Below, in pieces: positions 2,114-36,569 of a stretch of 64,000 bases of DNA. The position numbers and the translations under genes were made by a program. Source of the DNA: Bdellovibrionales bacterium (GTDB lineage: Bacteria; Bdellovibrionota; Bdellovibrionia; Bdellovibrionales; UBA1609); NCBI GenBank assembly GCA_965237565.1, contig OZ250145.1, forward strand, positions 955,529 to 1,019,528, in the 5' to 3' direction. Positions within the stretch are counted from its first letter, which is position 1; each line of letters opens with the position of its first letter. The notes below the pieces were generated by a model. The model made no database searches and had not been told where the DNA came from. It saw nothing but the letters and a program-made list of their open reading frames with translations.

Positions 2114-2126
2114 GGGGGGGGATTAA

Positions 2127-2327: not shown

Positions 2328-2412
2328 AAGAATTTAAAACTAAATAATCAAGAAGGTTTAAATTAAACAATGTTCTTTAACAAACGATGTGTTATACAAA
2401 TATAGAGATTTT

Positions 2413-3306: not shown

Positions 3307-3634
3307 TATAAGCCCTAATTGGTTGCAAATTTCAGCCAGTTAAAAAGAGAAAACTTCTACTAAGAAAATAACTTTTTGGAGATTGCAAATTGTGATATCT
3401 AGACTAAAATTTAAAACAGGAAGCTAATATTCTGCCATTTAGCCTTAAGAAAGATTGCTGTGAAGGAACCTATAATCACGACCTTTTAGTCCATAAAGTA
3501 AAAAATATTATCTAACTAGCATGATGATAGGCCTCTCACTTTTAGCTCGCGACATGACATATTCATCTACAATAGGTACAAATTTCACGGACACTGAAAT
3601 TGCAGAAAAAAGACAAAAACACTCAAAAGAATAC

Positions 3635-3734
3635 AAAGAAAATCACTCTAACAAATATTATTTGTTTCAAGGCTCATCAAGAGAGATCACATCTTCAAGT
3701 TCAATGTGCTGTCGATCTTGTACGTTGGTGGAGG
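3635..3734. repeat. 100-bp direct repeat, copy 2
   Basis: Identical by eye to 2014-2113. The ORF-track entries 1981..2190 and 3521..3772 share a peptide only because both read through this repeat. Confidence 0.85.
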
Positions 3735-4004
3735 ATGGTAGATATCCCCGCCAAATTTCTTTTCCATTTTAGATCGGGTGGACACAAAAATTTATTTCTT
3801 TATTATCTTTGCTTGTGCAAATTTTTCTAAAAGAGTTGAACTTGGATGATTAGCAAGAGAAACCAGCTGATTAATAAGAGCCACAGGGACAAGAGCATTG
3901 TCATACGTATCATAACTTTAGTCTTGGAATAATGAGTCCTGTGGAATATAAAAAAAGTTAAAGATTTTTATTGAATAACTCTGAATATATAGCACAATTT
4001 ATAC

Positions 4005-4493
4005 ATGAATTTTTTAAAAGTCAAAGTCCTTATATTTTTTTTGGGTCATTTCTTATTGATTGGAGTTCTTCATGCTGAAGACAAGAAAAATTTAATTCCT
4101 TTGATCAAAAAAAATCTTCCGACAGAAATTAGAGAAGTATTTTTTGAGGCAAAAAATAAGCAAGATATTGAGTTGGCTTTGAAAAAACCAGATCTCGTAG
4201 AAGACCAAACCTATTTTTATATCATAGCAGGATTTAAATATGCACTATCAATAACATTTAATAAAAATGATATTGAAAAAATTAGATTCTATTTACCAAA
4301 AAGTGGAGATCCATATTCTGTTTTTTCAGATAGTTTGTCTAATATTCCAAAGATTATGGAAAACAAAGGAACGCATGCAGAAGGAAGAGATTTTTCCACA
4401 ACGGATGATCAATTAGGCATCAAGCTAGTTTTTAGAAATAATTCTGAGAAAAATCTCAAAACTATAACACGCACAATTCAACAGAAAAAATGA
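4005..4493 (+). CDS. Secreted hypothetical protein
   Basis: N-terminal signal peptide 'MNFLKVKVLIFFLGHFLLIGVLHA'. Its stop overlaps the next start (ATGA), so the two genes are translationally coupled. Confidence 0.55.
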   Translation: MNFLKVKVLIFFLGHFLLIGVLHAEDKKNLIPLIKKNLPTEIREVFFEAKNKQDIELALKKPDLVEDQTYFYIIAGFKYALSITFNKNDIEKIRFYLPKSGDPYSVFSDSLSNIPKIMENKGTHAEGRDFSTTDDQLGIKLVFRNNSEKNLKTITRTIQQKK

Positions 4494-5599
4494 CACAAAT
4501 ATCCGCCTTGCTTTTGCTTTTTGTTTTTTCTATGCCGCCATTTGCAAACTCAAGTAAACGTTGCGAGTCTGTGCCTGTAAAAGATTCAAATTCTTGGCTG
4601 GACGATAATATGATGGAAATTAAGGAAGTGTTAGACAAAAGCTCGGCTGATTCTACACAAAAAATGAGAAACGCTTCATGTCGAAGCATTCCTCTAACAG
4701 AGGATGAGATTAATTCTTATTTTAATTCATTCAAATCAACAAGTAATGGAAATGTAATTAGTGTAAGCGGTGTTACTTTCGAAAATGAATCAAAAAAACT
4801 TATACAAATGTTTAATGAGCTAGTTACGAAATATACTTATTGGGGGAAACCTATGGAAACAATAGATGTTCAAAAAAAATATTCAATTAATCCCAAATGT
4901 AAAAAGGTAATTTGTGCAATAAAGAAGATCTTTGGGAAAACACTTGGTCCTAAGCTACTATATATGAAAACGAGATATGGGTTTAATAGCTCTCATCTTT
5001 CATATGACGTTGCATCACCACTTAATGATAGGGAATTAGAGAGGATTTTGATTGGAATAAGAAATTTTCCTCCATCTACTTTCCCCCTTAAACACACTCG
5101 GAGTCCAAAAACTACTGGAAATAAACAACTTATTAGAATACGAGGCCCCTCTCGTAGAGGTATAATAGCTAATGCAACTATGAAATATTTTGATCCATGG
5201 GAGCAACAAAGTGATCCTTATATGGATATTGCTGTTGTTCATGAACTGGGGCATTACATATGGGCAGAAAAAAAACTATCCAGTCTAACTTGGAATGCGT
5301 TTAGTGGTTGGGTAAACAAAGGTAGCAAGTGGGAATATACTAAGAAACATACATTGACATCTGACTATGCAACAAATGGTCCTGAGGAAGACTTTGCCGA
5401 ATCTGTTGTAGAGTATAGATATGACCCAATAGCACTCAAAAAGGCAAGTCTTGAAAAATATAATTTTATTAAGAATAAAGTATTTAATGATATTGAATAT
5501 GAAGATAGGTGTCCTTATCTTGCGGAGAATGAGGCGAATGATGCGGACCAGGGTACAACCGAAGGAAAAAAATATATAATAAGGATAATTTTTCAATAA
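4490..5599 (+). CDS. Secreted zinc metallopeptidase-like protein (HEXXH, gluzincin-like)
   Basis: Signal peptide 'MTQISALLLLFVFSMPPFANS'. 'VVHELGHYIW' is an HEXXH motif. Downstream 'EEDFAESVVEY' could supply the third Zn ligand Glu. Confidence 0.6.
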   Translation: MTQISALLLLFVFSMPPFANSSKRCESVPVKDSNSWLDDNMMEIKEVLDKSSADSTQKMRNASCRSIPLTEDEINSYFNSFKSTSNGNVISVSGVTFENESKKLIQMFNELVTKYTYWGKPMETIDVQKKYSINPKCKKVICAIKKIFGKTLGPKLLYMKTRYGFNSSHLSYDVASPLNDRELERILIGIRNFPPSTFPLKHTRSPKTTGNKQLIRIRGPSRRGIIANATMKYFDPWEQQSDPYMDIAVVHELGHYIWAEKKLSSLTWNAFSGWVNKGSKWEYTKKHTLTSDYATNGPEEDFAESVVEYRYDPIALKKASLEKYNFIKNKVFNDIEYEDRCPYLAENEANDADQGTTEGKKYIIRIIFQ

Positions 5600-5664
5600 T
5601 CTCATGTTTTATCTACTTGTTTTATCGAGCCCCGAAGGCATCTTGACGAGAACTGTCATTAAAT

Positions 5665-6144
5665 CTTCCCTTTAAAGATAAAATGTTTGATGCGATTGTT
5701 ACGGACCCGCCTTATTATGACAATATATTTTACACAGTACTTGCAGATAATTTCTATGCTTGGAAAAGGATGCTATTAAAACACGTTGAGCCAGAGCTAT
5801 TTAAAAACGAGAGTACCAATTTTGAAAATGAATTGGTCGCATCCACTCAAAGAAAAGGAAGCAAAGCTCATAAGGATTATTGTATCAATCTTGATACAGC
5901 TATCAAGGAAGCTTCAAGGGTCCTGAAAGATGACGGAACCATGTCCTTTGTTTATTCACATCGTTCCATCTTGGGCTGGCTGGGAGAAGATATTGCAATA
6001 GGACTGATGGCTCAAGCAGTTGCTTTGGTCTCGAATGCTATACGCATAGAGAACACTGATGACAAAAAAGCCCTTCTAGAAGTCGAAAAACTCATTGCCA
6101 AAAAATTTCCAAAATTTACACTCAGTAAAAGAAAATCACTCTAA
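5665..6144 (+). pseudogene. Duplicated 3' fragment of the COG1743 methyltransferase gene with a 240-bp internal deletion
   Basis: Matches 1311-2030. The encoded 153 aa equal residues from 'MFDAIVTDPPYY' to the stop of the full gene, except for one E->K change and loss of 80 aa between two ttgggctgg microhomologies. The N-terminal two thirds of the gene are absent. Confidence 0.85.
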
Positions 6145-20469: not shown

Positions 20470-20510
20470 CTATTGACTTATCTAGGGTCTTCTTCTTACA
20501 ATTTTTCAAG

Positions 20511-23399
20511 GTGGTTTATATGCTAGGATTGCTGATTATTTTCTGTAGGGAAGCTTTCGCTCGTTTCTTCTTGTTTCTATCTCTCAAAAACTTGTTCTCC
20601 CAATCAGGAGTGGGTCTAATTGGTGTAATGATCTCCGCCGCTGTGATGGTACCAGTGGCCTTGGTTTCAGTTCAGATTCATAAAAATATGTTGGTAGCAC
20701 AAAAGGACGTGGAGAGAAGATACTCTGTGGATCATTTGTTTCAAGATATTAGGTCTGAGCTAGGAGATACAGTGATTTGTACTCGGACCTTACGAACTTA
20801 TTTAGTAGATATGAAACTTCCAACAGAAGAAGAGGGGACTGCGGATTTGCCTTCCATAAAGACCAAGGATGGAACGGGTGATCTTCATGTGAAAGGAGGT
20901 ATTTACGAGGGCGGGAATGCAAAAATAAAGGAGATGGAAGTGTCACATCTTACGAGAGATACTTCAGGAGGCAACACAGGGACGGCAATTTTTACGGCAC
21001 ATTTTGAAAAGGGTAGCGCGGAGCAGGTAGGTTTGACAGACTTTAAACCTAGGGATTTGGAGTTAATGGTGGTTATGAACCTAGATGTAGCAGGAGAGCC
21101 GACAACTGTGAAAAGGTGCTGGGCTAAGTTTGCTGGACAAAATCTATCCTTATTAGAATCCTGCAAGGGTCGGATTGATTTTGTGAAGAACAATTGCCCT
21201 TATACCATGCCTCCTTGGTTATCATCAGCTAGTACATCGGATGAGATTGTTGAGCTTACCGGTGATAATGAGGTGATTTGGCACGAGGGTACTTGGAATG
21301 ATGGCACTTGGTGTACCTCTTCAACAAAATTGGAGCACTGTTTGTGGAAGGGAGGAACTTGGACCTCGGGGACTTGGAATAATGGTATCTGGCAAGCGGG
21401 TGAATGGTTTGGTTCTCCTGTTGATGGTGCTGATTGGAAAGCTGGTTTGTGTAAGGACAAAACACACCCCACTCCACCTCCTATCGTATGTTACGATCCA
21501 TGTGTTCCAACTGCTCCAGTCGCAACAGAAGGACATTGTGTGGTTTCAAAAGGACGTAGACACAGTGAGAAAGCTAGTGATGCTGTGACTACTTGTGAAG
21601 CTGGTTACCTAGGTAAATGTGAATCCGAATGCAATAATGGGAATTGGTTAAAAACTAGTAGATATAATGATGATGACTATTGCCATTTGCCAAGGAAATG
21701 TAGTGCAAAAACTATTAGTAGTCTTGATTGTTCACTCAAAGAGGTTGAACATGAGGGTACATCGGGAGATTGCAATGAGGGCTATGCAGGAAAATGCAAG
21801 CACAAATGCAATGATGAAACTTGGGAATATCTTCCTCTTACCAGCTATGATCCAGTTCGGATATCGTACGATGATCTTGTTAGAGGGACCTATGAAGAAT
21901 CTTACAATCACGCATGTCGTCCATTCAACACATGTTCTGGTAGCACCTTAGTAGCTGGCTCCAGAAGTTGCCATTCTGTGAATCCTTCTTCTGGTGTTAA
22001 GCATGGTGAGAAAGCCTCTGGGACATGTGGGCCTGGCTATGTGGGAGAATGTGGCTACACTTGTGTGGATGGTCGTTGGAATAGTCCTGGTTTTCATCAT
22101 ACCTGTCGCCTAGGCAAATCGTGTAGTGGAACTCGCAAGGGGGGAAGATGCAACTTAACTGTCGCTTCTCACGGAGTAACAACAAGAGGGCGTTGCGAAG
22201 ACTTCGGTAGTTGTAGATATAGGTGCCACGACGGTGAGTGGGAGCCTTCCACTGATACTTGTCGTGCAGGAAGGTCATGCAGCAATACTTCATTCAGAGA
22301 TTCTTCCTGTAAAGTGCTTGTTACTTCTCACGGTGACAAGTCAGGCACATGTGCATCAGACTACGTAGGAGAGTGCAAATTTAAATGTTTTGACTCTATC
22401 TGGAAGGATACATCCCCTGCTACCTCCAACACTTGTCGTTTGCCTAACAATTGTTTGGGAGATAAGATGATCGAGTATTGTTCGCTCGCAAGTGTTGGTA
22501 GTGGTAGAAGTTCAGGAACATGTCCATATGGTGGTGAGTGTAGCTACACCTGCAATGATGGTAGATGGACAAAATCTTTGAACACTTGCGGGGTACCGAG
22601 GACTTGTGATTCTGAGATAGTTGGTTTTTGCAATATGTATCACACCTTAGCCAAGCACGATAAAACATACCAGGGTCTTTGTACGGTCGGGTCCATCTAC
22701 GGCTATTGTGGGTATAAATGTAATGATGGCAACTGGGAAAAGGTTCGCTCTGAGTGTGGCTGTAACACTGAAACAAAGGATAACTGTAATGTGAGAATAA
22801 CTCAGCACGACACAGTCCAAGCAGGTACTTGCGCAGAGGGTTATACGGGTGAGTGTTCGTACGAGTGCAATGACGGTACTTGGCAGAGTGCTTCCACCGA
22901 TTTTTGTTCTGCCACATGTGTTGCAACAACCACAAGTGATAACTGTGAGTTGTCTGCTAGTGAGCATGGTCAGTCAGGAGGAGAATGTGCTGGTGGTTAC
23001 ACCGGTGGTTGTAGATATGAATGTGTTAATGGCACTTGGAAGAAGATGATTGTAGATAGCGAAGGAGGAGGTGGTTCATTATGTCAACCTGCTGTTTGGT
23101 GTGATGGGACTTGGGGATATAACCACTGTCAACTGCTGCCGAGGATTCATGGTAAGACATCAGGAAGATGTATACTTGGTGGTGGATGTAGCTACACGTG
23201 TGTCAATGGTACTTGGAGTAAGAATAGCAATACTTGCGTACATTGTAGTACTTATTGTCAGAGAAAAAAGAACACTTGCTGTGCGGAAAGAGTATATCGT
23301 ATGCATGGTAGTAGTACGACGAGATGTGCGCGGAACTCAGGAGCGTGTGACGGCACCTACAACAATTGTATGAACTCTTACAGGTGCTCTCCTCGGTAA
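20511..23399 (+). CDS. Cysteine-rich tandem-repeat protein with a hydrophobic pilin-like N-terminal anchor; function unknown
   Basis: 962-aa ORF. The N-terminal hydrophobic segment is 'GVGLIGVMISAAVMVPVAL'. GxW pentads are followed by about 10 tandem ~50-60-aa modules of the form C..(H)G...G.C..GY.G.C.Y.C.DG.W....C....C. Confidence 0.7.
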   Translation: MVYMLGLLIIFCREAFARFFLFLSLKNLFSQSGVGLIGVMISAAVMVPVALVSVQIHKNMLVAQKDVERRYSVDHLFQDIRSELGDTVICTRTLRTYLVDMKLPTEEEGTADLPSIKTKDGTGDLHVKGGIYEGGNAKIKEMEVSHLTRDTSGGNTGTAIFTAHFEKGSAEQVGLTDFKPRDLELMVVMNLDVAGEPTTVKRCWAKFAGQNLSLLESCKGRIDFVKNNCPYTMPPWLSSASTSDEIVELTGDNEVIWHEGTWNDGTWCTSSTKLEHCLWKGGTWTSGTWNNGIWQAGEWFGSPVDGADWKAGLCKDKTHPTPPPIVCYDPCVPTAPVATEGHCVVSKGRRHSEKASDAVTTCEAGYLGKCESECNNGNWLKTSRYNDDDYCHLPRKCSAKTISSLDCSLKEVEHEGTSGDCNEGYAGKCKHKCNDETWEYLPLTSYDPVRISYDDLVRGTYEESYNHACRPFNTCSGSTLVAGSRSCHSVNPSSGVKHGEKASGTCGPGYVGECGYTCVDGRWNSPGFHHTCRLGKSCSGTRKGGRCNLTVASHGVTTRGRCEDFGSCRYRCHDGEWEPSTDTCRAGRSCSNTSFRDSSCKVLVTSHGDKSGTCASDYVGECKFKCFDSIWKDTSPATSNTCRLPNNCLGDKMIEYCSLASVGSGRSSGTCPYGGECSYTCNDGRWTKSLNTCGVPRTCDSEIVGFCNMYHTLAKHDKTYQGLCTVGSIYGYCGYKCNDGNWEKVRSECGCNTETKDNCNVRITQHDTVQAGTCAEGYTGECSYECNDGTWQSASTDFCSATCVATTTSDNCELSASEHGQSGGECAGGYTGGCRYECVNGTWKKMIVDSEGGGGSLCQPAVWCDGTWGYNHCQLLPRIHGKTSGRCILGGGCSYTCVNGTWSKNSNTCVHCSTYCQRKKNTCCAERVYRMHGSSTTRCARNSGACDGTYNNCMNSYRCSPR

Positions 23400-23433
23400 G
23401 TATACAATTTGTTCCAGATAATAATAAAAAATC

Positions 23434-24267
23434 AGGGTCTGTTTTTACAGACAATGCAGTTATTCACTGGGGCATGAAGCAAAATAACCGTCTTTATCTT
23501 TACTGTAGTATTTAATGTATTTATATGATTGTAGAACTTCATGGCAGATCGAATTTCCTGTATTGGGAATATCAGAATCTGGATCGGGTATGCAATTATT
23601 TACCATTTGTTTAAAAAAACAATTTTGGTTCAGCAAACAAGTGCCGGTAGAGGGATCATAGATTGCATATAAAGATTCGCAAATTTTTTCATCTTCAAAC
23701 ATTACTTGGCAGGTCTCTACCACATGTGTCACGGGATTTAGGAGAAAAAGTATATCAAACTGATACAGAGGCAATTCAAAGGCTTTCGTGGGCTGAGCTT
23801 CAGGAATAATTTCTGAGAGGAGTTCGATTCTTCCAATAACCAATTTGTATTTTTGCTCCCTGAATAGATATGCTTGGACTGGTACAGAGTTTTTATGTTT
23901 CCAACTGAGGTTTTTAATTCGCCACCTACCATCAATAATGCTTCCAGTTTTAAGTATATTATCTTTTTGTAAATAGCTCCCGGTTTTGTACCCACTAATA
24001 TCAATACTTATTTCGGACTTTTTTGGAGGAACTTCTGTAGAATAGGGAAAAACTTTGCCAGAAAAATTCAATTTGCAAGATTGTTTTAGATAATAATTCA
24101 AACCAGAATAAAAATCATTAGCTTCAGCTTTAGCTAGCACATGCTCTTGAGATTGGAAATTTATTGGATACTAGTTTTCCAACTGCAAAGATCCAGATAG
24201 CAATCAAAATTGGGTCAAAAACTAAGTTCACTGATCTTGATTCAGATTTTAGCATCATCATTATTTT
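23434..24267 (-). pseudogene. Decayed paralogue of the 26702-27649 pilin-like Cys-rich gene
   Basis: Collinear with 26702-27640 but has three defects. A 95-bp deletion near the 3' end lies between 'attca' repeats and shifts the frame. A 1-nt insertion sits near the anchor-coding region. The start-codon region is lost at a junction. Confidence 0.8.
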
Positions 24268-24714
24268 CTTTATACCTATTTTAGTCGTAGGGATTGTCTC
24301 TGGATTGGAACTACCATTACTAATGAAAATCAGGAATAAAATGGAAGAAAAATTTTATGTCTTAGGATTTGATTTTGTGGGTATGTTTGTTGCATCTCTG
24401 TTATTTCCTATATCTTTTTTCACATTGGGGCTTTTTAAAACAGCAACCACTATCTCTATTATCAATCTTCTGGTTACCTATAGGCTTTCTCCCTCGAAAG
24501 AATTTGGTAAGGAAAAATTGATCGTTATATTTTTACTTCTTATCGCTATTTTTTTATGGCTATTCGACAAAAGGTATCTCCAGAAAAGCTATGGAGGGGA
24601 AAGACATCTTCCATCAATGGCACCAGATAGTAGCCCTCTAACGAAACAACAGGAAAGAGCATTAGAAGTGCCAAATAAAGAAAAAAAATAATCACCGAAG
24701 TGATTACTCTTTAT
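24260..24714 (+). pseudogene. Chimeric fragment: 3' half of the 29077-29760 membrane-protein gene fused to the 3' end of the metzincin gene
   Basis: 24260-~24565 matches 29401-~29710. ~24565-24714 matches 25882-26033. The track ORF 24164..24691 reads across both junctions. Confidence 0.8.
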
Positions 24715-24884
24715 TTTGGTTTTTGGCAAAGAATTGTAAAATTTTCTCTGCTACAACATAATTCTGATCGAACATGTGTTTTAAACTACCAGTGCACCAA
24801 GTATATGTACATTTTTAAACTGATAATCACTTTTATTGCTTTCCCCTTCTTTTTTTTCTCTTAACTTTGATATATGATATAAAA

Positions 24885-26039
24885 ATGAAAAAAATAGTAC
24901 AATATCTCCTTCATTTATCACTACTCCTTTTTGTGATGTGGTCATTAGATGTAAAAGTTCAAGCATTTGAGAGACTGAGAATCAAAGTTTTTTTAGGTGG
25001 TAGCTTGAAAGAAAAGGTCCTGCCTCTGGCCACCCCAAATCTTATCCTTGTAGGTAGTAGCCAAGGAACTGATGACACACCAACATTAGAAATTACAAAT
25101 TTAGAAAAGGATGCAAGGGTTAGCTTGTATAAAAACTCTCTTTGTTCTGGTTCTGGTGCCAATATTTTTGTAGATAGCAGTGGAAGATTTACAGTCCCCT
25201 CTGAGCTAGAGACAAGTTATGGAGGTAATTATTATTCTGCCAAACAAACAGTAAATGGAAAAAGCTCTGCTTGCTCTGAGGCCATTTATTATCTCCACTC
25301 TTCCCCGTCAATAAACGGATGGAAGCGCTGGTCCGAGGATATGCTACGTAAAGGTATCACTACTAAAATCAGTACATTTTTTGGCAAGGATCTAGAAGAC
25401 ACCCGAGATTCTCGTGGCATCAATGCTTTTGAACGAATGATGGAGGAGTGGAATAAAAACGGATTGAACGGATTGAACGGTTTTAAAGTTCCAAGCGTTA
25501 GAGTAGATAACATAGATGGACTAGTTTATGAGAATGGTGTAGTGTCAATTCATGTCAACCAACGAGATTTACCTATCTACACCCCTGATGTAATAGCCCG
25601 GGCCTTCCGTAGAATGATAGTTGAATATGAGGGTACTCCTTACGAACACGGACAGATAATCGCTGCTAGTGTTCTAGTGAACTGGAACGCACAATTAGAT
25701 TTTGTCGGCTTTACTTACGATCCTTTAGATATTCGTAACTTTGATTTACCTTCTACCATTCTTCATGAGTTAGGGCATTGCTTGGGTTTAGGGCATTCAC
25801 CTAGTGGTTCTATGTCAATAATGGAAGCATATTTTAGTAGTAATCCCGTCCTTCGAGCTCTGCGAGCTCTCACACCTTATGACAAAAGATATCTCCAGAA
25901 AAGCTATGGAGGAGAAAGACATCCCCCCCCATCAATGGCATCAGCTAACAGCCCTCTAGCGAAGCAGCAGAAAAGAGGATTACAAGCACCAAATAAAGAA
26001 AAAAAAATAATCACCGAAGTAATTACTCTTTATCGCTAG
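24885..26039 (+). CDS. Secreted metzincin-type zinc metalloprotease with an N-terminal Ig-like domain
   Basis: Signal 'MKKIVQYLLHLSLLLFVMWSLDVKVQA'. 'ILHELGHCLGLGHS' is HExxHxxGxxH, followed by 'SIMEAY' (Met-turn). 'TPTLEITNLEKDARVSLYKNSLCSG...SACSEAIYY' is a bacterial Ig-like pattern. Confidence 0.75.
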   Translation: MKKIVQYLLHLSLLLFVMWSLDVKVQAFERLRIKVFLGGSLKEKVLPLATPNLILVGSSQGTDDTPTLEITNLEKDARVSLYKNSLCSGSGANIFVDSSGRFTVPSELETSYGGNYYSAKQTVNGKSSACSEAIYYLHSSPSINGWKRWSEDMLRKGITTKISTFFGKDLEDTRDSRGINAFERMMEEWNKNGLNGLNGFKVPSVRVDNIDGLVYENGVVSIHVNQRDLPIYTPDVIARAFRRMIVEYEGTPYEHGQIIAASVLVNWNAQLDFVGFTYDPLDIRNFDLPSTILHELGHCLGLGHSPSGSMSIMEAYFSSNPVLRALRALTPYDKRYLQKSYGGERHPPPSMASANSPLAKQQKRGLQAPNKEKKIITEVITLYR

Positions 26040-26690: not shown

Positions 26691-26701
26691 TTAAAGTAGC
26701 A

Positions 26702-27649
26702 TTAGGGTCTGCTTTTACAGACAATGCAATTATTCATCTTTAGTCTTACTGAGTAGGTGTTTGTACAATTTTCTCCACAACTTTGCTTTTTTGATCCATA
26801 TAATGTAGTGGAAAAAAGCACAGTTGAATCACTGGGGCATGAAGCAAAATAACCATCTTTATCTTTACTGTTGTATTCAATGTATTTATGTGACTGCAAA
26901 ACCTCGTGGCAGATCGAATTTCCTGTATTGGGAATATCAGAATCTGGATCGGGTATGCAGTTATTAGCCCTGCTTTTAGAAAAACAATTTTGGTTCAATA
27001 AACAAGTACTGGTAGAGGGATCATAGATTGCATGTAAAGATTCGCAAATTTTTTCATCTTCAAACATTACTTGGCAGGTCTCTACCACATGTGTCACAGG
27101 ATTTAGGAGAAAAAGTATATCAAACTGATACAGAGGCAATTCAAAGGCTTCTGCGGGCTGAGCTTCAGGAATAATTTCTGATAAAAGTTCGATTCTTCCA
27201 ATAACCAATTTGTATTTTTGCTCCTTGAATAGATATGCTTGGACTGGTACAGAGTTTTTATGTTTCCAACTAAGCTTTTTAATTCGCCACCTACCATCAA
27301 TAATGCTTCCTGTCTTGAGTATATTATCTTTTTGCAAATAGCTTCCAGTTTTGTACCCATTAATATCAATACTTAGCTCAGAATCCTCAGGAGAGGCTTC
27401 TGTAGAATAGGGAAAAGGTTTGCCAGAAAAATTCAAATCGCAAGATTGTTTTAGATAATAGTCTAAGCCAGAATAAAAATCATTGGCTTCAGCTCTGGCC
27501 AGCACATGGTCTTGAGATTGAAAACTATTGGATACTAATGTTCCAACTGCCAAGATCCAGATAGCAATCAAAATTAGACCAAAAACTAGGCTCACTGAGC
27601 TTGATTCAGGCTTTAATATCATCATTATTTTTGTGTAAAAATTTTTCAT
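26702..27649 (-). CDS. Cys-rich exported protein with a pilin-like N-terminal hydrophobic anchor; function unknown
   Basis: 'MKNFYTKIMMILKPESSSVSLVFGLILIAIWILAVGTLV' is followed by a soluble domain with about 12 Cys. This is the intact paralogue of 23434-24267. The track ORF begins at GTG 27661. Confidence 0.6.
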   Translation of the reverse strand: MKNFYTKIMMILKPESSSVSLVFGLILIAIWILAVGTLVSNSFQSQDHVLARAEANDFYSGLDYYLKQSCDLNFSGKPFPYSTEASPEDSELSIDINGYKTGSYLQKDNILKTGSIIDGRWRIKKLSWKHKNSVPVQAYLFKEQKYKLVIGRIELLSEIIPEAQPAEAFELPLYQFDILFLLNPVTHVVETCQVMFEDEKICESLHAIYDPSTSTCLLNQNCFSKSRANNCIPDPDSDIPNTGNSICHEVLQSHKYIEYNSKDKDGYFASCPSDSTVLFSTTLYGSKKQSCGENCTNTYSVRLKMNNCIVCKSRP

Positions 27650-27870
27650 TCTGGTACCCACATTTAAAAGACCAAAAACTCCGCATGATCGACAAATGGG
27701 ATGCTAACAAATTGGATTGCAATGCACAATCAATATATCACAATATGCATCAAACATCTTTTTCAACAAATAAGTTTTCATTCTGGATTCGAAAAGATAA
27801 TATTGAAGAAAAATTTTCTATTCTAAGAGTTAATTGTAAACTCATGAAGTGAATAGCTGGTTTATTTCTC

Positions 27871-29076: not shown

Positions 29077-29760
29077 ATGAAACAGATAGAAAATAAAAAA
29101 GAGTTCATGTTCATTACTTTTCTTCTAGCTTTTTGTAGCTTATTTTATGAACTCATTTTTTCTCAATTGATATCTATCTTTATTGGAAGTGTTATTTTCA
29201 GTTATAGTTTGGGAATTGGAGTTTTTATCCTAGGCTTGGGTTTGGGAGCTTTTTTGTGTGATAGGTTAACGGATAAGTCAAAGTATATTGAGCAACTTTT
29301 TTATATTGAGATAGCCTTAGCTATTTACGCACTTATTGGGCTGTATGTGGGGATTATTTTGGCACAAGTGACAACATTTTATCCTACAACACTTAGATAC
29401 ATTATTTTCTTTATACCCATTTTAGCTGTGGGAATTGTCTCTGGGCTGGAATTACCATTACTAATGAAAATAAGAAATAAGATTGAAGAAAAATTTTATG
29501 TCTTGGGATTTGATTTTGTAGGCATGTTTGTTGCATCTTTACTATTTCCTATATTTTTTTTCACATTGGGACTTTTTAAAGCAGCTACCACTATCGCTAT
29601 TATCAATCTTCTAGCTGCCTATAGGCTTGCTCCTTTTAAAAAATTTGGTAAAGAAAAATTGATCGTTATATTTTTGCTCCTTATTGCTACTCTTTTATGG
29701 TTGTTTGATTCTCATTTGATTCCTTTACGAGAATACCTATTTTTAGGAACGAGGGCGTGA
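29077..29760 (+). CDS. Membrane-only homologue of the N-terminal domain of the downstream fused membrane/spermidine-synthase-like proteins
   Basis: 'FCSLFYELIFSQLISIFIGSVIFSYSLGIGVFILGLGLGAF' parallels 'FCSMSYQLLMARALAETTGHHILSYSASFGFFLLGMGIGG' of the paralogues. Its stop overlaps the GTG start of the next gene (gcGTGA). Confidence 0.65.
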   Translation: MKQIENKKEFMFITFLLAFCSLFYELIFSQLISIFIGSVIFSYSLGIGVFILGLGLGAFLCDRLTDKSKYIEQLFYIEIALAIYALIGLYVGIILAQVTTFYPTTLRYIIFFIPILAVGIVSGLELPLLMKIRNKIEEKFYVLGFDFVGMFVASLLFPIFFFTLGLFKAATTIAIINLLAAYRLAPFKKFGKEKLIVIFLLLIATLLWLFDSHLIPLREYLFLGTRA

Positions 29761-31427
29761 TTTTTCTAAGAGTATTATTCTTAGCATTTTGTAGTATGAG
29801 CTACCAACTCTTAATGGCCAGAGCTTTAGCCGAAACAACAGGTCATCATATACTTAGTTATAGTGCCTCTTTTGGTTTCTTTTTGCTTGGGATGGGAATT
29901 GGTGGAATTTATTATACCAAATCCTTGATTCGAAAATCTCCACTCAAGGTCTTTTTTTATACGGAAATTTTATTAGCTCTTTTAGGTGGTTTGGCTGTTG
30001 TTTTTATCTTTTTTTCACATACTTTGCTAAATCTTTGGTTTTTTTCAGACATGAATAACTTCTTTTCAGAACGGATAAAGGATTTTCTCTTTATCTTTTT
30101 TTCACAAATTTTTCTTTTTCTTGTTGGCTTTCTTTCCGGCTTTGAGCTTCCCATTTGGTTGAAATTAGCAGAAGCAAGAAAAAATTCCCAAGGAATTTTA
30201 AACAAGACTGGAGCTTTATTGGCAGCTAGCTACATGGGAGGTTTTGCTGGAAGCTTGTTACTTACACTTTTGATTGCGCCGATTTTTGGACTCATCAGTT
30301 CTTGTATATTAATTGGTTTTATAAATGTAATTGTTTTGATTGAGACTTTTGTTTCTTATAAAAATCTTTCTTTAAAAAAAAGTTTTGCTATTTTGGCATC
30401 TATATTTGTTATTTATACAGGTGGGTTTTGGCAAAAAGAGATTTTGCAAATTAATTTAAAATCTTCTTATTTACAAGTGGGTTTGTCGGAATTTAGTTTT
30501 AATGCGGCAAAAGATTTTTTTTCTTTATCTCATCATTATGGAGAAGTTTTAAGAATCCGTACTCCTTATCAAAATGTTGATATTTTGCTTTCCAATTTTT
30601 TAAAAAATCCCGTTCATAATTCTTTTACATTCAGTGGATCTGGAATTGTTCTTTTTCTGAATAGATTTACACAGTTTGAAGAAAAATTTTGGTTAATCTA
30701 TCATGAAATGCTTGCGATTGGAGGGGTACTTTTGGCGGATAAAGAACCTAAAAATGTCTTAGTTTTAGGTGGAGGGGATGGGCTACTCATCTCACAGATG
30801 TTAAAGCTTTATAAGGGGATTAAAAAAATCACCCAAGTTGATATTGATTCCGCCTTAATTAAAGTAGGAAGGTATTATAGGCCCATAAATGTCGTGAACC
30901 AAGAAGCTTTGTCGAGTCATAAATTAACTACTATTATAGGTGATGCCTTTGAGTATGTGAGCAAATCCAAAAGCACCTATGATGCTATTTTTATAGATAT
31001 ACCTTTTCCATATACCTTTGATTTGTCTAGGCTCTATAGCTTTGAATTTTATAAAAATCTTAGCCATCTTTTAGAAGAAGATGGTTTTGTTGTAACAGAT
31101 TCTCCTACCAAAGAGTGTTTGAAAACATCTTTATTTGTTGAGAAAATACTTCAGCTGTCTGATTCTCCAATGAATATTCTTTATAACACCCTAACTTATG
31201 CTGGTTACAAAACAGTTATTCCTTATGGTACAACAGAACCATGCATGCTATTTTTTCAAAAAATAAAACGAGATAAGGTTAATTTTAGTAAAGAAGAGAT
31301 TGAGAAATATCCGCTATCTAAGATAGGAAAAAGAAATTTAGTTATAAATAAAGATGTAAAAAAAGATGTTAAAATTAAGAAAAAGTATATTAATTCTGTT
31401 TTTAAACCTACGCTATTCAGATATTAG
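29757..31427 (+). CDS. Fused polytopic membrane / spermidine-synthase-like protein, paralogue 1
   Basis: About 7-8 TM segments, then 'VLVLGGGDGLLISQML...ITQVDIDSALI...IIGDAFEYV...YDAIFIDIPFPYTFDLSRLYSFEFY' (SpeE-fold motifs). Confidence 0.75.
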   Translation: MIFLRVLFLAFCSMSYQLLMARALAETTGHHILSYSASFGFFLLGMGIGGIYYTKSLIRKSPLKVFFYTEILLALLGGLAVVFIFFSHTLLNLWFFSDMNNFFSERIKDFLFIFFSQIFLFLVGFLSGFELPIWLKLAEARKNSQGILNKTGALLAASYMGGFAGSLLLTLLIAPIFGLISSCILIGFINVIVLIETFVSYKNLSLKKSFAILASIFVIYTGGFWQKEILQINLKSSYLQVGLSEFSFNAAKDFFSLSHHYGEVLRIRTPYQNVDILLSNFLKNPVHNSFTFSGSGIVLFLNRFTQFEEKFWLIYHEMLAIGGVLLADKEPKNVLVLGGGDGLLISQMLKLYKGIKKITQVDIDSALIKVGRYYRPINVVNQEALSSHKLTTIIGDAFEYVSKSKSTYDAIFIDIPFPYTFDLSRLYSFEFYKNLSHLLEEDGFVVTDSPTKECLKTSLFVEKILQLSDSPMNILYNTLTYAGYKTVIPYGTTEPCMLFFQKIKRDKVNFSKEEIEKYPLSKIGKRNLVINKDVKKDVKIKKKYINSVFKPTLFRY

Positions 31428-31453
31428 ATTAAACTTATTTTTGGGAATTGCCG

Positions 31454-33178
31454 GTGATTTTTGTAAGAATTTTCATTTTGTCTTTTTGTAGTATGAGTTA
31501 TCAACTTCTGATGGCTAGATCTTTAGCTGAAATAACACAACATCATATATTTGGTTATAGTATTTCCTTTGGCTTCTTTTTGCTTGGGATGGGAATTGGT
31601 GGAATTTATTATGCCAAATCTTTGATTCAAAAATCTCCACTCAAGGTCTTTTTTTCTACTGAAATTTTCTTAGCTCTTTTAGGTGGTTTAGCTGTTTTTT
31701 TTATCTTTTTTTCACATACTTTGCTAAATCTATTGGTTTTTTCAGACATGAATAACTTCTTTTCTGGAAATGCAAAAGATTTTATCTTTATCTTTTTTTC
31801 ACAAAGTTTTCTTTTTCTTATTGGCTTTTTTTCCGGCTTTGAGCTTCCCATTTGGTTGAAATTAGCAGAAGCAAGAAAAAATTCCCAAGGAATTTTAAAC
31901 AAAACTGGAGCTTTATTGGCAGCTAGCTACATGGGAGGTTTTGCTGGAAGTTTGTTACTTACACTTTTGATTGCACCAATTTTTGGACTCATCAGCTCTT
32001 GTATATTGATTGGGTTTATAAATGTAATTATTTTGATTGAGACTTTTGTTTCTTATAAAAATCTTTCTTTAAAAAAAAGTTTTGCCATTTTGGTATCTAT
32101 ATTTTTCCTTTATATGGGAAATTATTGGCAAAAAGAGATTTTGCAAATGAATTTGAAATCTTATTATTTGCGGGTGGGTTTGTCGGAGTTTAGTTTTAAG
32201 GCAGCAAAAGATTTTTTTTCTTTGTTGGATGATTATAATGAAATTTTAAGAGTTCGGACTACTTATCAAAATGTAGACATTATACTTTTCAATTTTTTAA
32301 GAAATTCCTCTCAACGGAATTTTCCATTTAGAGATCGTACTCTCCATCTTTTTCTGAATAGGTTTCATCAATTTGAATTTTCCCTAGACAAATTCAATCG
32401 AGAAAGCTGGGTACGAGAAAACTGGGTACGAGAAAGCTGGGTAGATTATTATGATACTTCATTGGTTGGAGGAGCTATTTTAGCAGGTGGAGAACCTAAA
32501 AATATTTTGATTGTAGGGGCAGGAGGACATAGTTTAGGGCTCCCACGAGTTCTAAAATTTTATAAGGGAGTTAGAAAAATTACATTATTGGATATTGATC
32601 CCTTCATGATCAAAATAGGAAGATCCTATAAACCCATAAGTAGTTTGAACCCAAAAGACCTTCTGAAGCATAAACTGAATATTATCATAGATGATGCTTT
32701 TGACTACGTGAGCAAAACCATGGATACTTATGATGCTGTGTTTATACAATTCCCCTCTCCATACACTTTTGATTTATCTAGGCTTTATAGCTTTGAATTT
32801 TATAAAAATCTCAGTCATCTTCTAGAGGAAGATGGTTTTATTTTGATGGATGCTCGTTCGATTGAGTGTGGGAAGGCAGCTTTATTTAATGAAGAAGGAT
32901 TTCAGTTTTCTGGTTCTCCGGTTAATATTTTGTATAGCACACTAACTTATGCTGGTTACAACACAATTATCATTTACGGTAGGACAAGGTCGTGTCTTTT
33001 ATTTGCTCAAAAAATAAAGCGAGATGAAATTAGTTTTAAGAAAAAAGCAATGAAAAAATATCCCTTATCTAAGAGAAGAGAAAAAGAGTTGGTTATAAAT
33101 AAAGATATAAAAAAAAGTATTGAAATCAAGCGAAAGTATATCAACTCCGTTTTCAAGCCCACATTCTTCAGATACTAA
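31454..33178 (+). CDS. Fused membrane / spermidine-synthase-like protein, paralogue 2 (degenerate cofactor motif)
   Basis: Same architecture, but GGGDG is replaced by 'GAGGHSLG' and 'FIDIP' by 'FIQFP'. It carries a 'RESWVRENWVRESWV' insertion. I prefer GTG 31454 (MIFVRIF..., matching its siblings) over TTG 31448. Confidence 0.7.
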   Translation: MIFVRIFILSFCSMSYQLLMARSLAEITQHHIFGYSISFGFFLLGMGIGGIYYAKSLIQKSPLKVFFSTEIFLALLGGLAVFFIFFSHTLLNLLVFSDMNNFFSGNAKDFIFIFFSQSFLFLIGFFSGFELPIWLKLAEARKNSQGILNKTGALLAASYMGGFAGSLLLTLLIAPIFGLISSCILIGFINVIILIETFVSYKNLSLKKSFAILVSIFFLYMGNYWQKEILQMNLKSYYLRVGLSEFSFKAAKDFFSLLDDYNEILRVRTTYQNVDIILFNFLRNSSQRNFPFRDRTLHLFLNRFHQFEFSLDKFNRESWVRENWVRESWVDYYDTSLVGGAILAGGEPKNILIVGAGGHSLGLPRVLKFYKGVRKITLLDIDPFMIKIGRSYKPISSLNPKDLLKHKLNIIIDDAFDYVSKTMDTYDAVFIQFPSPYTFDLSRLYSFEFYKNLSHLLEEDGFILMDARSIECGKAALFNEEGFQFSGSPVNILYSTLTYAGYNTIIIYGRTRSCLLFAQKIKRDEISFKKKAMKKYPLSKRREKELVINKDIKKSIEIKRKYINSVFKPTFFRY

Positions 33179-33204
33179 GTGAAATTGATTGTTGAGAATT
33201 ACTA

Positions 33205-34875
33205 ATGATTTTTATAAGAATTTTCATTTTGTCTTTTTGTAGTATGAGTTATCAACTCCTGATGGCCAGATCTTTGGCCGAAACAACAAGCTATTATATA
33301 TTTAGCTATAGCGTATCCTTTGGCTTCTTTTTGCTTGGGATGGGAATTGGTGGAATTTATTATGCCAAATCTTTGATTCAAAAATCTCCACTCAAGGTCT
33401 TTTTTTATATTGAAATTTTCTTAGCTCTTTTAGGTGGTTTAGCTGTTTTTTTTATCTTTTTTTCACATACTTTTCTGAATTTATTGTTTTTTTCAGACAT
33501 GAATAACTTCTTTTCTGGAATTGCAAGAGATTTTCTCTTTATACTGGTTTCACAAATTTTTCTTTTTCTTGTTGGCTTTTTTTCTGGTTTTGAACTTCCT
33601 ATTTGGTTAAAATTGGCAGAAATAAAAAAAGATTCTAAAGCAATATTATACAAAACTGGAGCTTTACTGGGAGCTAGCTACATGGGAGGTTTTGCTGGAA
33701 GCTTGTTAATCACACTTTTGATTGTGCCAATTTTTGGTCTACTCAATGCCTGTGTACTGATTGGTTTGATAAACTTAATAGTTTTGATTGAGACTTTTGT
33801 TTCTTATAAAAGTCTTTCTTTAAAAAAAAGTTTTGCTATTTTGGCATCTATATTCTTGCTTTACGCAGGGAATTTTTGGCAAAAAGAGATTTTGCAAATG
33901 AATTTAAAATCTTCTTATTTAGAATTAGGTTTGTCGGAATTTAGCTTTAAAGCAGCGAAAGATTTTTTGTCCTTATCTCATGATTATGAGGAAATTTTAA
34001 GAGTCCGTACTCCTTACCAAAATATTGATATTATGCCCTCCAACTTTTTAAAAAATTCCAAGCGATTAGGATTTTCATTTAGTGAATATGGAATCGTTCT
34101 TTTTTTGAATAGATTTTGGCAGTTCCATCAAGCATTTTGGGTATCCAACCATGAAGCTCAGGTGGTTGGAGGAACTCTTTTGGCGGGTAAAGAACCTAAA
34201 AATATTTTAATTTTGGGTGGAGGGGATGGATTGATGATCTCACAGATGTTAAAGTTTTATAAGGGAATCAAAAAAATTACACAAATCGATATTGATTCTG
34301 TCTTAATTAAGGTAGGAAGATATTATAGGCCCATAAGTGCCGTGAGCAAGGAAGCTCTTTTGAGCAATAAATTAACTACTATTATAGGTGATGGGTTTGA
34401 ATATGTGAGCAAATCCAAAAGCACTTATGATGCTGTTTTTATAGATGTACCCATGCCATATACTTTTGATTTGTCTAGACTTTATAGTTTTGAATTTTAT
34501 AAAAATCTTGGTCATATTTTAGAAGAAGATGGATTTGTTGTGATGGATTCTCCTTTGAAAGGATGTCAGAAAATATTTTTATTCGGTGGAACAATGTTTG
34601 AACTAGCTGGTTCTCCAGCTAATATTTTGTATAGCACTTTAACTTATGCAGGTTACAAAACAATTATTGCTTATGGAATGAATTATACATGTATACTATT
34701 TTTTCAAAAAATAAAACGAGATAAAATTGAGTTTACTAAAACAGAAATTGAAAAATATTCTTTATCCAAAGGAGGGAAAAGAGAGTTGCTTATACATAAA
34801 GATGTAGAAAAGAATATTAAAATTAAACAAAAATACATCAATTCTGTTTTTAAGCCTACGCTATTCAGATACTAG
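33205..34875 (+). CDS. Fused membrane / spermidine-synthase-like protein, paralogue 3
   Basis: 'ILILGGGDGLMISQML', 'ITQIDIDSVLI', 'YDAVFIDVPMPYTFDLSRLYSFEFY'. Confidence 0.75.
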   Translation: MIFIRIFILSFCSMSYQLLMARSLAETTSYYIFSYSVSFGFFLLGMGIGGIYYAKSLIQKSPLKVFFYIEIFLALLGGLAVFFIFFSHTFLNLLFFSDMNNFFSGIARDFLFILVSQIFLFLVGFFSGFELPIWLKLAEIKKDSKAILYKTGALLGASYMGGFAGSLLITLLIVPIFGLLNACVLIGLINLIVLIETFVSYKSLSLKKSFAILASIFLLYAGNFWQKEILQMNLKSSYLELGLSEFSFKAAKDFLSLSHDYEEILRVRTPYQNIDIMPSNFLKNSKRLGFSFSEYGIVLFLNRFWQFHQAFWVSNHEAQVVGGTLLAGKEPKNILILGGGDGLMISQMLKFYKGIKKITQIDIDSVLIKVGRYYRPISAVSKEALLSNKLTTIIGDGFEYVSKSKSTYDAVFIDVPMPYTFDLSRLYSFEFYKNLGHILEEDGFVVMDSPLKGCQKIFLFGGTMFELAGSPANILYSTLTYAGYKTIIAYGMNYTCILFFQKIKRDKIEFTKTEIEKYSLSKGGKRELLIHKDVEKNIKIKQKYINSVFKPTLFRY

Positions 34876-34901
34876 CTCAAATTGATTCTTAGGGAGGACC
34901 A

Positions 34902-36569
34902 ATGATTTTTGTAAGAATTTTCATTCTGTCTTTTTGCAGTATGAGCTATCAATTTTTGATGGCTAGATCTTTAGCTGAGACAACAGGTCACTATATACTT
35001 AGTTACAGTGTCTCATTTGGTTTTTTTTTATTGGGGATGGGAATTGGTGGAATTTATTATGCCAAATCCCTGATTCGAGAGCCTCCACTCAAGGTCTTTT
35101 TTTATATTGAAATTTTGTTGGCTCTTCTAGGTGGTCTGGCTGTTTTTTTTATCTTTTTTTCACATACTTTGTTAAATCTTTGGTTTTTTTCGGATATAAA
35201 TAACTTATTTTCAGGGCAGGTAAAAGATTTTATTTTTATCTTTTTTTCACAAATTATTCTTTTTTTTGTTGGTTTCCTTTCTGGATTTGAACTTCCTATC
35301 TGGTTAAGATTGACAAAAATGAAAAAAAATATCAATGGGGCTTTGTATGAAACTGGAGCTTTATTGGCAGCTAGCTGCATGGGAGGTTTTGTTGGAAGCT
35401 TGTTAATTACCCTTTTAATTGTGCCAATTTTTGGTCTGATTCATTCTTGCATACTGATTGGTTTTATAAACCTAATTATTTTGATGGAATCTTTTGGTTT
35501 TTATAAAAATCTTTCCTTAAAAAAAAGTTTTGCTATTTTAGTATCTATATTTATACTTTACACAGGGAATTTTTGGCAAAAAGAGATTTTGCAAATTAAT
35601 TTAAAATCTTCTTATTTGCGAGTGGGTTTGTCGGAATTTAGTTTTAAAGCAGCGAGAGATTTTTTTTCTTTGTTGGATAATTACAATCAAGTATTAAGAG
35701 TTCGGACTTCTTATCAAAATGGCGATATTATGCTTTCAAATTTTTTAAGAAATTTTGCTCAATCGAGTTTTCCATTTCATAATCATGGAGTCACTCTTTT
35801 CCTGAATAGATTTTGGCAATTTGATCAAGTATTTTGGCTATCCTACCATGAAGCTGAAGCAGTTGGAGGGGCTCTTTTGGCAGGAAAAGAGCCCAAAAAT
35901 ATCTTAATTTTAGGTGGAGGAGAAGGGTTGTTAATTTCACAGATTCTAAAATTTTATAAAGGAATCAAAAAAATTACACAAGTGGAGATTGATCCTATTA
36001 TGATGAAAGTAGGAAGATACTATAAACCTGTCAGTACTGTGAGCCAAGGAGCTCTTTTAAATCACAAATTGAATACTATTCTAGGGGATGGTTTTGAATA
36101 TGTAAGCAAAGCCAAAAGCACCTATGATGCTATTTTTGTTGATGTTCCTTTTCCATATACTTTTGATTTGTCTAGACTCTATAGCCTTGAATTTTATAAA
36201 AATCTTAGCCATCTTTTAAAAGAAGATGCTTTTGTTGTCATAGATTCTCCTTTAAAGGAATGCGAGAGAGAAATTTTTGGGGAAGAGGCAACTCAATTAG
36301 CTGGTTCTCCAGCTAATATTTTATATAGTACCTTAACTTATGCTGGTTACAAAACAATTATTGCTTATGGAATGAATGATACATGTATATTATTTTTTCA
36401 AAAAATAAAGCGAGATGAAGTTAGTTTTAGAGAAGAAGAGCTAAAAAAATATCCCATATCTAAAGAAACAAGAAAGATGCTCACCATAAACAAAGAGATA
36501 GAAAAAAATATTAAAATTAAACGAAAATATATCAATTCTGTTTTTAAACCTACGCTATTCAGGTACTGA
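34902..36569 (+). CDS. Fused membrane / spermidine-synthase-like protein, paralogue 4
   Basis: 'ILILGGGEGLLISQIL', 'ITQVEIDPIMM', 'YDAIFVDVPFPYTFDLSRLYSLEFY'. Confidence 0.75.
   Translation: MIFVRIFILSFCSMSYQFLMARSLAETTGHYILSYSVSFGFFLLGMGIGGIYYAKSLIREPPLKVFFYIEILLALLGGLAVFFIFFSHTLLNLWFFSDINNLFSGQVKDFIFIFFSQIILFFVGFLSGFELPIWLRLTKMKKNINGALYETGALLAASCMGGFVGSLLITLLIVPIFGLIHSCILIGFINLIILMESFGFYKNLSLKKSFAILVSIFILYTGNFWQKEILQINLKSSYLRVGLSEFSFKAARDFFSLLDNYNQVLRVRTSYQNGDIMLSNFLRNFAQSSFPFHNHGVTLFLNRFWQFDQVFWLSYHEAEAVGGALLAGKEPKNILILGGGEGLLISQILKFYKGIKKITQVEIDPIMMKVGRYYKPVSTVSQGALLNHKLNTILGDGFEYVSKAKSTYDAIFVDVPFPYTFDLSRLYSLEFYKNLSHLLKEDAFVVIDSPLKECEREIFGEEATQLAGSPANILYSTLTYAGYKTIIAYGMNDTCILFFQKIKRDEVSFREEELKKYPISKETRKMLTINKEIEKNIKIKRKYINSVFKPTLFRY

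Follow-up and report, generated by a model that had tools for sequence, protein, structure and literature searches.

Sushi or CCP modules are the textbook protein-recognition units of animals and poxviruses, and the locus described here raises the question of whether a long series of cysteine-rich repeats in a bacterial protein belongs to the same superfamily, and what such a protein might do. The stretch analyzed (64,000 nucleotides (nt), positions 955,529 to 1,019,528 of contig OZ250145.1 of a Bdellovibrionales bacterium; hereafter the window) harbors an open reading frame (ORF; 20520-23399, plus strand) that encodes 959 amino acid residues plus a stop codon when read from its ATG, as in the public gene call (P0001), and 962 residues when read from a GTG at 20511. 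All residue numbers follow the 962-residue frame, and identifiers with the prefixes P and L denote proteins and contigs, respectively. The deduced protein contains 77 cysteine (Cys) residues, and its designation as a surface protein is inferred from this content together with a single N-terminal hydrophobic helix. Its C-terminal part is predicted to be built of ten modules of a divergent Sushi/HormR branch.

Architecture of the cysteine-rich array

The array is composed of ten consecutive units (residues 331-911, nt 21501-23243) of 48-78 residues each, with exactly six Cys per unit, labelled a to f, and is followed by a Cys-rich tail. The bit scores listed below were obtained with an independent hidden Markov model (HMM), constructed from 480 units of other proteins without the window protein and its one close homologue.

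21501-21698, plus strand: unit 1, residues 331-396, 26.6 bits
21699-21932, plus strand: unit 2, residues 397-474, 44.4 bits; 25-residue insertion between tryptophan (Trp) and the last Cys
21933-22121, plus strand: unit 3, residues 475-537, 25.4 bits
22122-22277, plus strand: unit 4, residues 538-589, 39.5 bits
22278-22451, plus strand: unit 5, residues 590-647, 39.9 bits
22452-22604, plus strand: unit 6, residues 648-698, 36.3 bits
22605-22760, plus strand: unit 7, residues 699-750, 29.2 bits
22761-22916, plus strand: unit 8, residues 751-802, 47.4 bits; included in the structural model
22917-23099, plus strand: unit 9, residues 803-863, 44.7 bits; included in the structural model
23100-23243, plus strand: unit 10, residues 864-911, 41.2 bits; the sole unit with a recognizable orthologue in a sister strain (65% amino acid identity)
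23244-23396, plus strand: C-terminal Cys-rich tail, residues 912-962, 51 residues with 8 Cys including a CC pair; degenerate

Since the ten units score 25-47 bits, against a best value of 5.6 bits in 200 composition-preserving shuffles, they are not a chance pattern. The consensus computed from these ten units together with eight from the one close homologue, C-x3-T-x4-C-x-L-x4-HG-x2-SG-x-C-x2-GY-x-G-x-C-x-Y-x-C-NDGTW-x5-NTC, contains a Trp column that is invariant over all 18 aligned units. Protein identity between units ranges from 23 to 46%. At the DNA level, Tandem Repeats Finder (TRF) detected no tandem repeat inside the array and a blastn comparison of the array with itself returned a single match (41 bp at 80%), which rules out a recent amplification of the units. 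An earlier examination of the letters and translated frames (hereafter the sequence-only reading) had described about ten tandem six-Cys modules at 21480-23399, proposed a consensus that agrees with the one computed here, and regarded the array as old from its divergence at the DNA level. This description holds throughout, its start lying 21 nt ahead of unit 1 and its end coinciding with the stop codon.

A Cys-rich tail of ~40-50 residues with a CC pair recurs behind the arrays of several other Bdellovibrionales proteins (P0006 and ORFs in L002, L004, L007 and L011), and may represent a separate terminal domain, a tip or a sorting signal.

Relationship to the Sushi and HormR folds

The AlphaFold2 (AF2) model of units 8-9, calculated from an alignment of 75 tandem unit pairs, is all-beta, with a mean predicted local distance difference test score (pLDDT) of 92 and a predicted template modelling score (pTM) of 0.72. 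When this model was compared with PDB using Foldseek, CCP/Sushi proteins made up nearly all of the best 50 matches, including factor H CCP19-20, FHR-1, FHR-2, CD46, CD55, beta2-glycoprotein I, factor XIII-B, Crry, C1r and B6 of monkeypox virus (MPXV), with probabilities up to 1.00, template modelling (TM) scores of ~0.5 over two modules and E-values of ~2e-3. The HormR domain of latrophilin (4dlq) superposed at 1.7 A over 44 columns, which is a partial fold similarity. Likewise, the eleven best matches in a library of viral structures (probability of at least 0.93) were CCP/Sushi proteins, namely poxvirus complement control and B5R-type proteins.

Remote sequence comparison led to the same proteins. 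A two-unit profile searched against all PDB sequences retrieved vaccinia complement control protein (VCP) first (E 0.0022), followed by the alarmin release inhibitor HpARI and factor H. In the hmmsearch alignment to VCP (1vvc), Cys a, c, e and f and the Trp fall on Cys I, II, III and IV and the Trp of Sushi, respectively, while Cys b is placed opposite Gly in the "NG" of Sushi and Cys d opposite a Ser. A weak phmmer match to a scorpion alpha-toxin (E 0.007) was dismissed as a coincidence of Cys spacing and disappeared when the profile was used.

It is highly improbable that the repeat is of the EGF or some other generic Cys-rich type, with a superficial likeness to Sushi: no EGF structure occurs among the listed PDB fold matches, nearly all of which are CCP/Sushi or HormR, the Pfam EGF models do not match, the PDB-sequence profile leads to CCP proteins, and the Trp and the four-Cys register fit Sushi, even though the C5-C6 loop of EGF (disulfides 1-3, 2-4 and 5-6) looks similar to the stretch from c to d, C-x2-GY-x-G-x-C, and one subfamily of units loses c and d together. 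The EGF interpretation was rejected on the fold evidence of the listed Foldseek matches.

A link to curated families is provided by two relatives, P0047 and P0133 (E-values of 1.7e-23 and 3e-11 against the unit profile, respectively), whose units are devoid of b and d. Both pass the Pfam thresholds for HRM and Sushi, scoring higher on HRM, and thereby bridge the six-Cys family to these families. P0047 may be eukaryotic; it is encoded on a gene-poor contig, where it adjoins a protein kinase gene. Neither PF00084 (Sushi) nor PF02793 (HRM) matched the window protein or any of the 18 units, and among the relatives only the four-Cys proteins P0047 and P0133 pass PF00084. Because the fold matches of the AF2 model, the PDB-sequence profile and the bridging four-Cys relatives agree, the module is predicted to be a divergent six-Cys branch of the Sushi/HormR superfamily, sharing its fold and core and missed by existing models, rather than a new fold.

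The module thus resembles Sushi/CCP/SCR domains (PF00084; factor H CCP19-20, VCP) in its size of ~50-60 residues, its predicted beta-sandwich, the register of four Cys and Trp, and the head-to-tail arrangement of units as beads on a string. It differs in possessing the extra Cys pair b and d, its own HG...SG and NDGTW/NTC motifs and a shorter hypervariable loop, and in being bacterial, with no link to complement, and undetected by PF00084. With the HRM/HormR domain (PF02793) of secretin-type and adhesion G-protein-coupled receptors it would share an SCR-like fold and three disulfides; however, the third disulfide is placed elsewhere in HRM (C1-C3, C2-C5, C4-C6), which has two Cys after the Trp, whereas the module has one.

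By homology to Sushi, the disulfides of which connect I-III and II-IV, the pairs a-e and c-f are inferred, together with an extra pair b-d. The latter is supported by P0023, in which three units next to a normal six-Cys unit have lost b and d jointly, and by P0045, P0047 and P0133, which have likewise lost both. A simple b-d pairing does not fit a second four-Cys subfamily (P0014, P0037, P0118, P0130, P0140 and others), however, in which c and d are both missing and which would need a re-paired b-f bond or another topology.

Four-Cys units without c and d, of the type C...W.V....C...G...D.....G.A.F.C.DG.W.......C, were observed in P0014, P0037, P0072, P0087, P0118, P0130, P0140 and P0143; they often alternate with six-Cys units within one protein and have no Pfam model either.

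Distribution of the six-cysteine module

The whole protein gave no match in Pfam-A or NCBIfam at E-values up to 10, and none of the 18 separate units (own and homologue) gave one in Pfam at the same limit. The module stretches of ten diverse carriers were equally blank in both collections, while other domains of these proteins were recognized. A profile search of 1.84 billion cluster representatives revealed 385 proteins, counted as clusters at 50% identity, with E <= 1e-3, among them 136 with E <= 1e-10 and 25 with E <= 1e-30. The best 151 of these 385 proteins contain ~500 units, 497 of which were re-aligned end to end; all six Cys are present in 363 of the 497, spread over 134 of the 151 proteins, and the median full-length unit measures 50 residues. 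On these searches, the six-Cys form is an undescribed and widespread bacterial variant, unmodelled in Pfam and NCBIfam. A literature search returned nothing relevant on bacterial Sushi modules in pilins or in Bdellovibrio.

Genome scanning with a tight alignment of eight units detected carriers in metagenome-assembled genomes (MAGs) of Bdellovibrionales, Leptospirales, Pseudomonadales and Candidatus Paceibacterota. Two complete small chromosomes deposited as "MAG: Bdellovibrionales bacterium" carry the module, OZ242172.1 (1.56 Mb, seven loci in the scan) and OZ241911.1 (1.41 Mb). The architectures closest to that of the window protein come from these two chromosomes, and together with the 1.33-Mb contig and the G+C content of ~40% at the source of the window this suggests an organism of the same kind. 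In OZ242172.1 there are genes for at least ten module proteins, the ends of which vary and include prepilin signals (MKNIRG↓FSLIE; arrows mark the putative cleavage position), ordinary signal peptides, Hint domains and an S74 chaperone (P0010). Elsewhere the module is combined with InlB B-repeat, GLUG, TSP3, fibronectin type III, PT-HINT and cadherin-like domains, of which the first five are all extracellular contexts.

In this respect, too, the sequence-only reading was largely borne out. The Sushi/CCP-like core that it had noticed is real both at the level of the fold (AF2 and Foldseek) and at that of remote sequence similarity (PDB profile), and the HMM search and AlphaFold modelling that it had suggested led to the 385 clusters and the CCP proteins, and to a Sushi-like model with a pLDDT of 92, respectively. 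The distribution that it had left to be mapped spans the four lineages named above. Its statement that the array is not a described bacterial repeat family agrees with the empty Pfam and NCBIfam results for the protein and the module stretches of carriers and with those of Pfam for the 18 units. Membership in an already described family, which it had named as a ground for withdrawing the claim, applies in part: the Sushi/HRM superfamily, of which the module forms a divergent branch, was already known, but no curated model recognizes the module.

Divergence between sister strains

The one close relative of the protein, P0002, is encoded on contig L001 (sample ERZ25766962, 2x coverage) next to the same neighbour genes. 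Identity between the two loci falls steeply from the upstream genes towards the array and is regained downstream:

Nnr gene: 99.5% nt identity to L001
TsaE gene: 99.0% nt identity
Intergenic region: 98% nt identity
ORF codons 1-230: 94.3% nt identity
ORF codons 231-320: 83.3% nt identity
21480 to ~23109, plus strand: no DNA alignment, except for patches of 69 nt (78%) and 44 nt (82%)
Unit 10, tail and 3' flank: 77% nt identity
Downstream segments: 98-99% nt identity

When all units of the two proteins were compared pairwise, an orthologue was found for the last one alone (65%), whereas the other pairs show 27-53% identity, the background between paralogues. Past a frameshift, the L001 gene continues to approximately eleven units and ends in the same tail. 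The array is therefore the fastest-changing part of the locus, with units 1-9 replaced or unalignable in comparison with one sister strain. The proportions of synonymous (pS) and nonsynonymous (pN) differences rise jointly towards the array (pS 0.01, 0.02, 0.11 and 0.27; pN 0.00, 0.01, 0.04 and 0.14, respectively), and suggest the import of a divergent allele or cassette, and not only selection on point mutations. Taken together, the comparison points to recombinational replacement of alleles or cassettes rather than to point mutation alone.

The region is also recombination-prone, as judged from a second copy in L001 and from the many truncated and mosaic duplicates in the 6 kb downstream of the gene (within 23-30 kb). 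The second copy (L001 5826-6491, 95% nt identity) comprises the 3' end of TsaE, the promoter region between the two genes and codons 1-166, and is cut off where the contig ends; it represents a tandem paralogue, unless the 2x contig was misassembled. In the window, segments 23431-24200 and 26701-27564 constitute a segmental duplication with 90% identity. The ORF at 24164-24691 is a mosaic, the middle of which copies the membrane protein encoded at 29077-29760, while its last ~40 residues (YLQKSYGGERH...PNKEKK) copy the C-terminus of a matrixin-like ORF (24867-26039).

N-terminal region and proposed function

The part of the protein preceding the array was subdivided as follows.

20520-20609, plus strand: 30-residue, partly hydrophobic leader ending in SQSG, delimited by sequence
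20610-20675, plus strand: 22-residue hydrophobic helix VGLIGVMISAAVMVPVALVSVQ, either a pilin-like alpha1-N helix or a signal anchor; Gly, not Glu, at position 5
20676-21278, plus strand: N-terminal globular region, 94% nt identity to the sister strain over ORF codons 1-230
21279-21437, plus strand: Trp repeat W-x-x-G-x with a five-residue period, WHEGTWNDGTWC...WKGGTWTSGTWNNGIWQAGEW, residues 257-309, just before the array; no Pfam match
21453-21500, plus strand: Pro-rich linker KDKTHPTPPPIVCYDP, delimited by sequence

In the Trp-repeat stretch, TRF detected a period-15 DNA repeat at 21278-21311, and the protein of the sister strain is longer here by an insertion of 12 residues. No relative of the N-terminal domain was found when metagenomes were scanned for it.

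A class III signal (IPR012902) consists of a short basic leader ending in Gly, followed by ~20 hydrophobic residues with Glu at position 5. In the window protein, ...LKNLFSQSG is followed by VGLIGVMISAAVMVPVALVSVQ, with Gly at position 5, and then by an amphipathic segment ending in Cys. Comparison by hhalign with six canonical pilin-type carriers placed SQSG↓VGLIG exactly on NIRG↓FSLIE (67 columns, E 1e-4), so that the window protein and the pilin-type relatives agree in the G↓x cleavage site and in the place of the Cys that first follows the helix. Weak phmmer and BLASTP matches (E ~1e-3 to 8e-3; BLASTP 0.008, in the helix stretch) connect the protein to P0005, and P0005 is itself linked to N_methyl proteins. 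Signals of the form G↓F(S/T)L(I/V)E are present in at least ten of the best 151 of 385 carriers, and P0010 (from OZ242172.1), P0012 and P0024 match Pfam N_methyl or TIGR02532. A lipoprotein was ruled out by sequence inspection, there being no lipobox ahead of Cys12.

From these features and from the array, we consider it probable that the protein is exported, pilin-borne and hypervariable, and serves in recognition or adhesion at the cell surface by means of a Sushi-like stalk. Several observations weigh against this interpretation. In the N-terminus, Gly takes the place of Glu5 and Val that of Phe1, neither Pfam N_methyl (PF07963) nor NCBIfam TIGR02532 matches the protein, the hhalign probability to the pilin-type carriers is just 58%, and the best-supported start yields an unusually long leader of 30 residues; the AF2 model of residues 25-330, based on a two-sequence alignment, is unusable (pLDDT 34), and there are no pilus or type II secretion genes within the 64-kb window. 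As regards the array, the E-values of the Foldseek and PDB-sequence matches are modest (~2e-3), the c/d-less subfamily complicates the disulfide topology, and the hypervariability derives from a single 2x metagenome contig containing frameshifts.

Some of the same observations would fit a protein with the same Sushi-like stalk in which the helix is an uncleaved signal anchor (type II topology), the protein staying in the inner membrane and probing the periplasm, or surfacing otherwise, with no link to a type IV filament. Such an arrangement is less probable, but is the main alternative. It would account for the missing Glu5, the lack of a match to pilin models and the absence of pilus genes from the window, and is compatible with the many carriers that have ordinary signal peptides or GLUG, InlB B-repeat, Hint or cadherin-like architectures, because of which the module cannot be regarded as tied to pilins. 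What argues against it is the exact hhalign register, both at the cleavage site and at the Cys next to the helix, and also that the proteins of Bdellovibrionales MAGs that come nearest in architecture are genuine N_methyl proteins. Given this register on the one hand and the missing Glu5, the long leader, the lack of model matches and the absence of pilus genes from the window on the other, a modular pilin with a degenerate type IV pilin (class III) signal is retained as the leading, yet unproven, description.

An unlikely alternative is a soluble or outer-membrane-associated fibre secreted by the Sec pathway. Its signal peptide would be long, taking up all of residues 1-55, and would be cleaved off; the fibre would then serve as a phage-fibre-like adhesin, comparable to those of Bdellovibrio, or as a stalk for delivery in a polymorphic toxin-type system. 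The window protein itself contains no S74, Hint or toxin domain, just the Cys-rich tail of 51 residues, and no trimerization element is evident, although some module relatives end in Peptidase_S74 (P0010, P0015) or in Hint/PT-HINT (P0024, P0033, and ORFs in L005 and L009), and Bdellovibrio is known to recognize its prey by means of diversified fibre adhesins on its surface, which have variable tips and are in some cases S74-processed (PMC10769870).

Like the mosaic adhesive trimer (MAT) fibres of Bdellovibrio (PMC10769870), the window protein would be an elongated surface adhesin of predatory Bdellovibrionota with diversified recognition parts, and some of its relatives share the S74 chaperone domain with some MAT fibres; MAT proteins, however, are trimeric coiled-coil or beta-helical phage-like fibres without Sushi-like modules, and no homology to the window protein was found. 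The protein would be a different structural solution to prey recognition.

Modular pilins, as the preferred interpretation would have it, are an established class, with 264 architectures catalogued and with multi-repeat and S74-chaperone forms reported (PMC8179133); the S74 domain also occurs here in P0010. The protein resembles the modular type IV pilins PilB and PilC of Streptococcus sanguinis and CofB of enterotoxigenic Escherichia coli (ETEC) (PMC8179133) in having a putative pilin-type helix at the N-terminus, a small domain and grafted C-terminal modules. It differs from them in its degenerate class III signal, in that a pilin fold is not demonstrated, and in that the graft is a ten-fold Sushi-like array.

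A second non-canonical pilin-like protein may be encoded by the ORF at 26702-27661 (319 aa), the product of which starts with a hydrophobic helix of its own, SSS↓VSLVFGLILIAIW, and is rich in Cys at the C-terminus; a 5'-truncated copy of it is present on the minus strand at 23460-24140 (226 aa).

The following mode of action is proposed. The C-terminal 580 residues are strongly predicted to form ten tandem disulfide-rich modules of the Sushi fold, each with the Sushi Cys a, c, e and f (I-IV), the Trp and the extra pair b and d. After export, the modules would fold oxidatively in the periplasm and form an elongated stalk resembling beads on a string; for CCP modules generally, a stalk of ten would measure a few tens of nanometres. 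The stalk would be held by the N-terminal hydrophobic helix, which is most likely a degenerate class III pilin signal with an alpha1 helix, so that the protein, as a pilin or pseudopilin of the modular kind, would be displayed on a filament or at the face of the inner membrane. Ligands on prey or host cells or on surfaces may then be contacted by the stalk and by its conserved C-terminal tip, which is rich in Cys, with strain-specific arrays recognizing ligands on other cells. Replacement of the array by recombination would fit this role, since it is expected for a receptor-binding or antigenically exposed protein.

Gene boundaries and genomic surroundings

The following signals flank the coding sequence.

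20473-20502, plus strand: sigma-70-like promoter match TTGACT-N18-TACAAT, 10 of 12 consensus positions, the best in the region, based on consensus match alone
20508-20514, plus strand: Shine-Dalgarno-like AAGGTGG, 5 nt upstream of the ATG at 20520, by sequence
23437-23452: GC-rich hairpin between two convergent genes, terminator-like on the minus strand, pattern match alone

The ATG at 20520 is favoured as the start because AAGGTGG lies 5 nt upstream and because P0001 has the same start; an internal TTG at 20592 would give an alternative six-residue leader, MFSQSG. The number of promoter-like sites in the region does not exceed that in shuffles. We regard it as very unlikely that the ORF is unexpressed, being a decaying or spurious frame: in spite of the truncated and mosaic gene copies in the surrounding 23-30 kb, the frame is open over 2.9 kb with all 60 module Cys in register, the promoter-like site and the Shine-Dalgarno sequence are present, and the sister strain keeps an intact array that differs in sequence and follows the same module grammar.

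Upstream of the ORF are housekeeping genes encoding TilS-like, FtsH, GlmM, Nnr and TsaE proteins. Elsewhere in the window, a segment of low G+C content (0.30-0.34) at 78-6144 encodes DNA methylase-like and ORF6N-domain proteins and is possibly a mobile or phage-derived island. Four tandem paralogues of ~555 aa, each consisting of a multi-pass membrane region and a spermidine-synthase-like domain, are located at 29757-36569, where the G+C content is 0.31 as compared with ~0.41 nearby. A 1762-aa ORF at 58662-63950 has no Pfam match at E <= 1e-3.

Implications

The findings point to a large bacterial branch of Sushi/CCP with a predicted third disulfide, undetected by Pfam and NCBIfam. Because these collections miss the six-Cys branch, hundreds of large surface proteins in public data stand as blank "hypothetical proteins"; a family model would annotate the module proteins at once and flag candidate adhesins in predatory or episymbiotic bacteria with reduced genomes, to whose life cell-cell recognition is central. 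The turnover of the array between near-identical strains marks the gene as a likely specificity determinant.

As a broader and rather doubtful proposal, the six-Cys module may represent an ancient branch of Sushi/HormR, bacterial for the most part, that is used as an interchangeable recognition cassette in small-genome Bdellovibrionales and in host-dependent bacteria such as Paceibacterota, and pilin-type arrays would be swapped by recombination among a dozen paralogues to produce strain-specific prey or host specificity, in the manner of phage tail-fibre or antigenic-variation systems. If this were true, the old bacterial branch would bear on the origin of animal Sushi and HormR domains.

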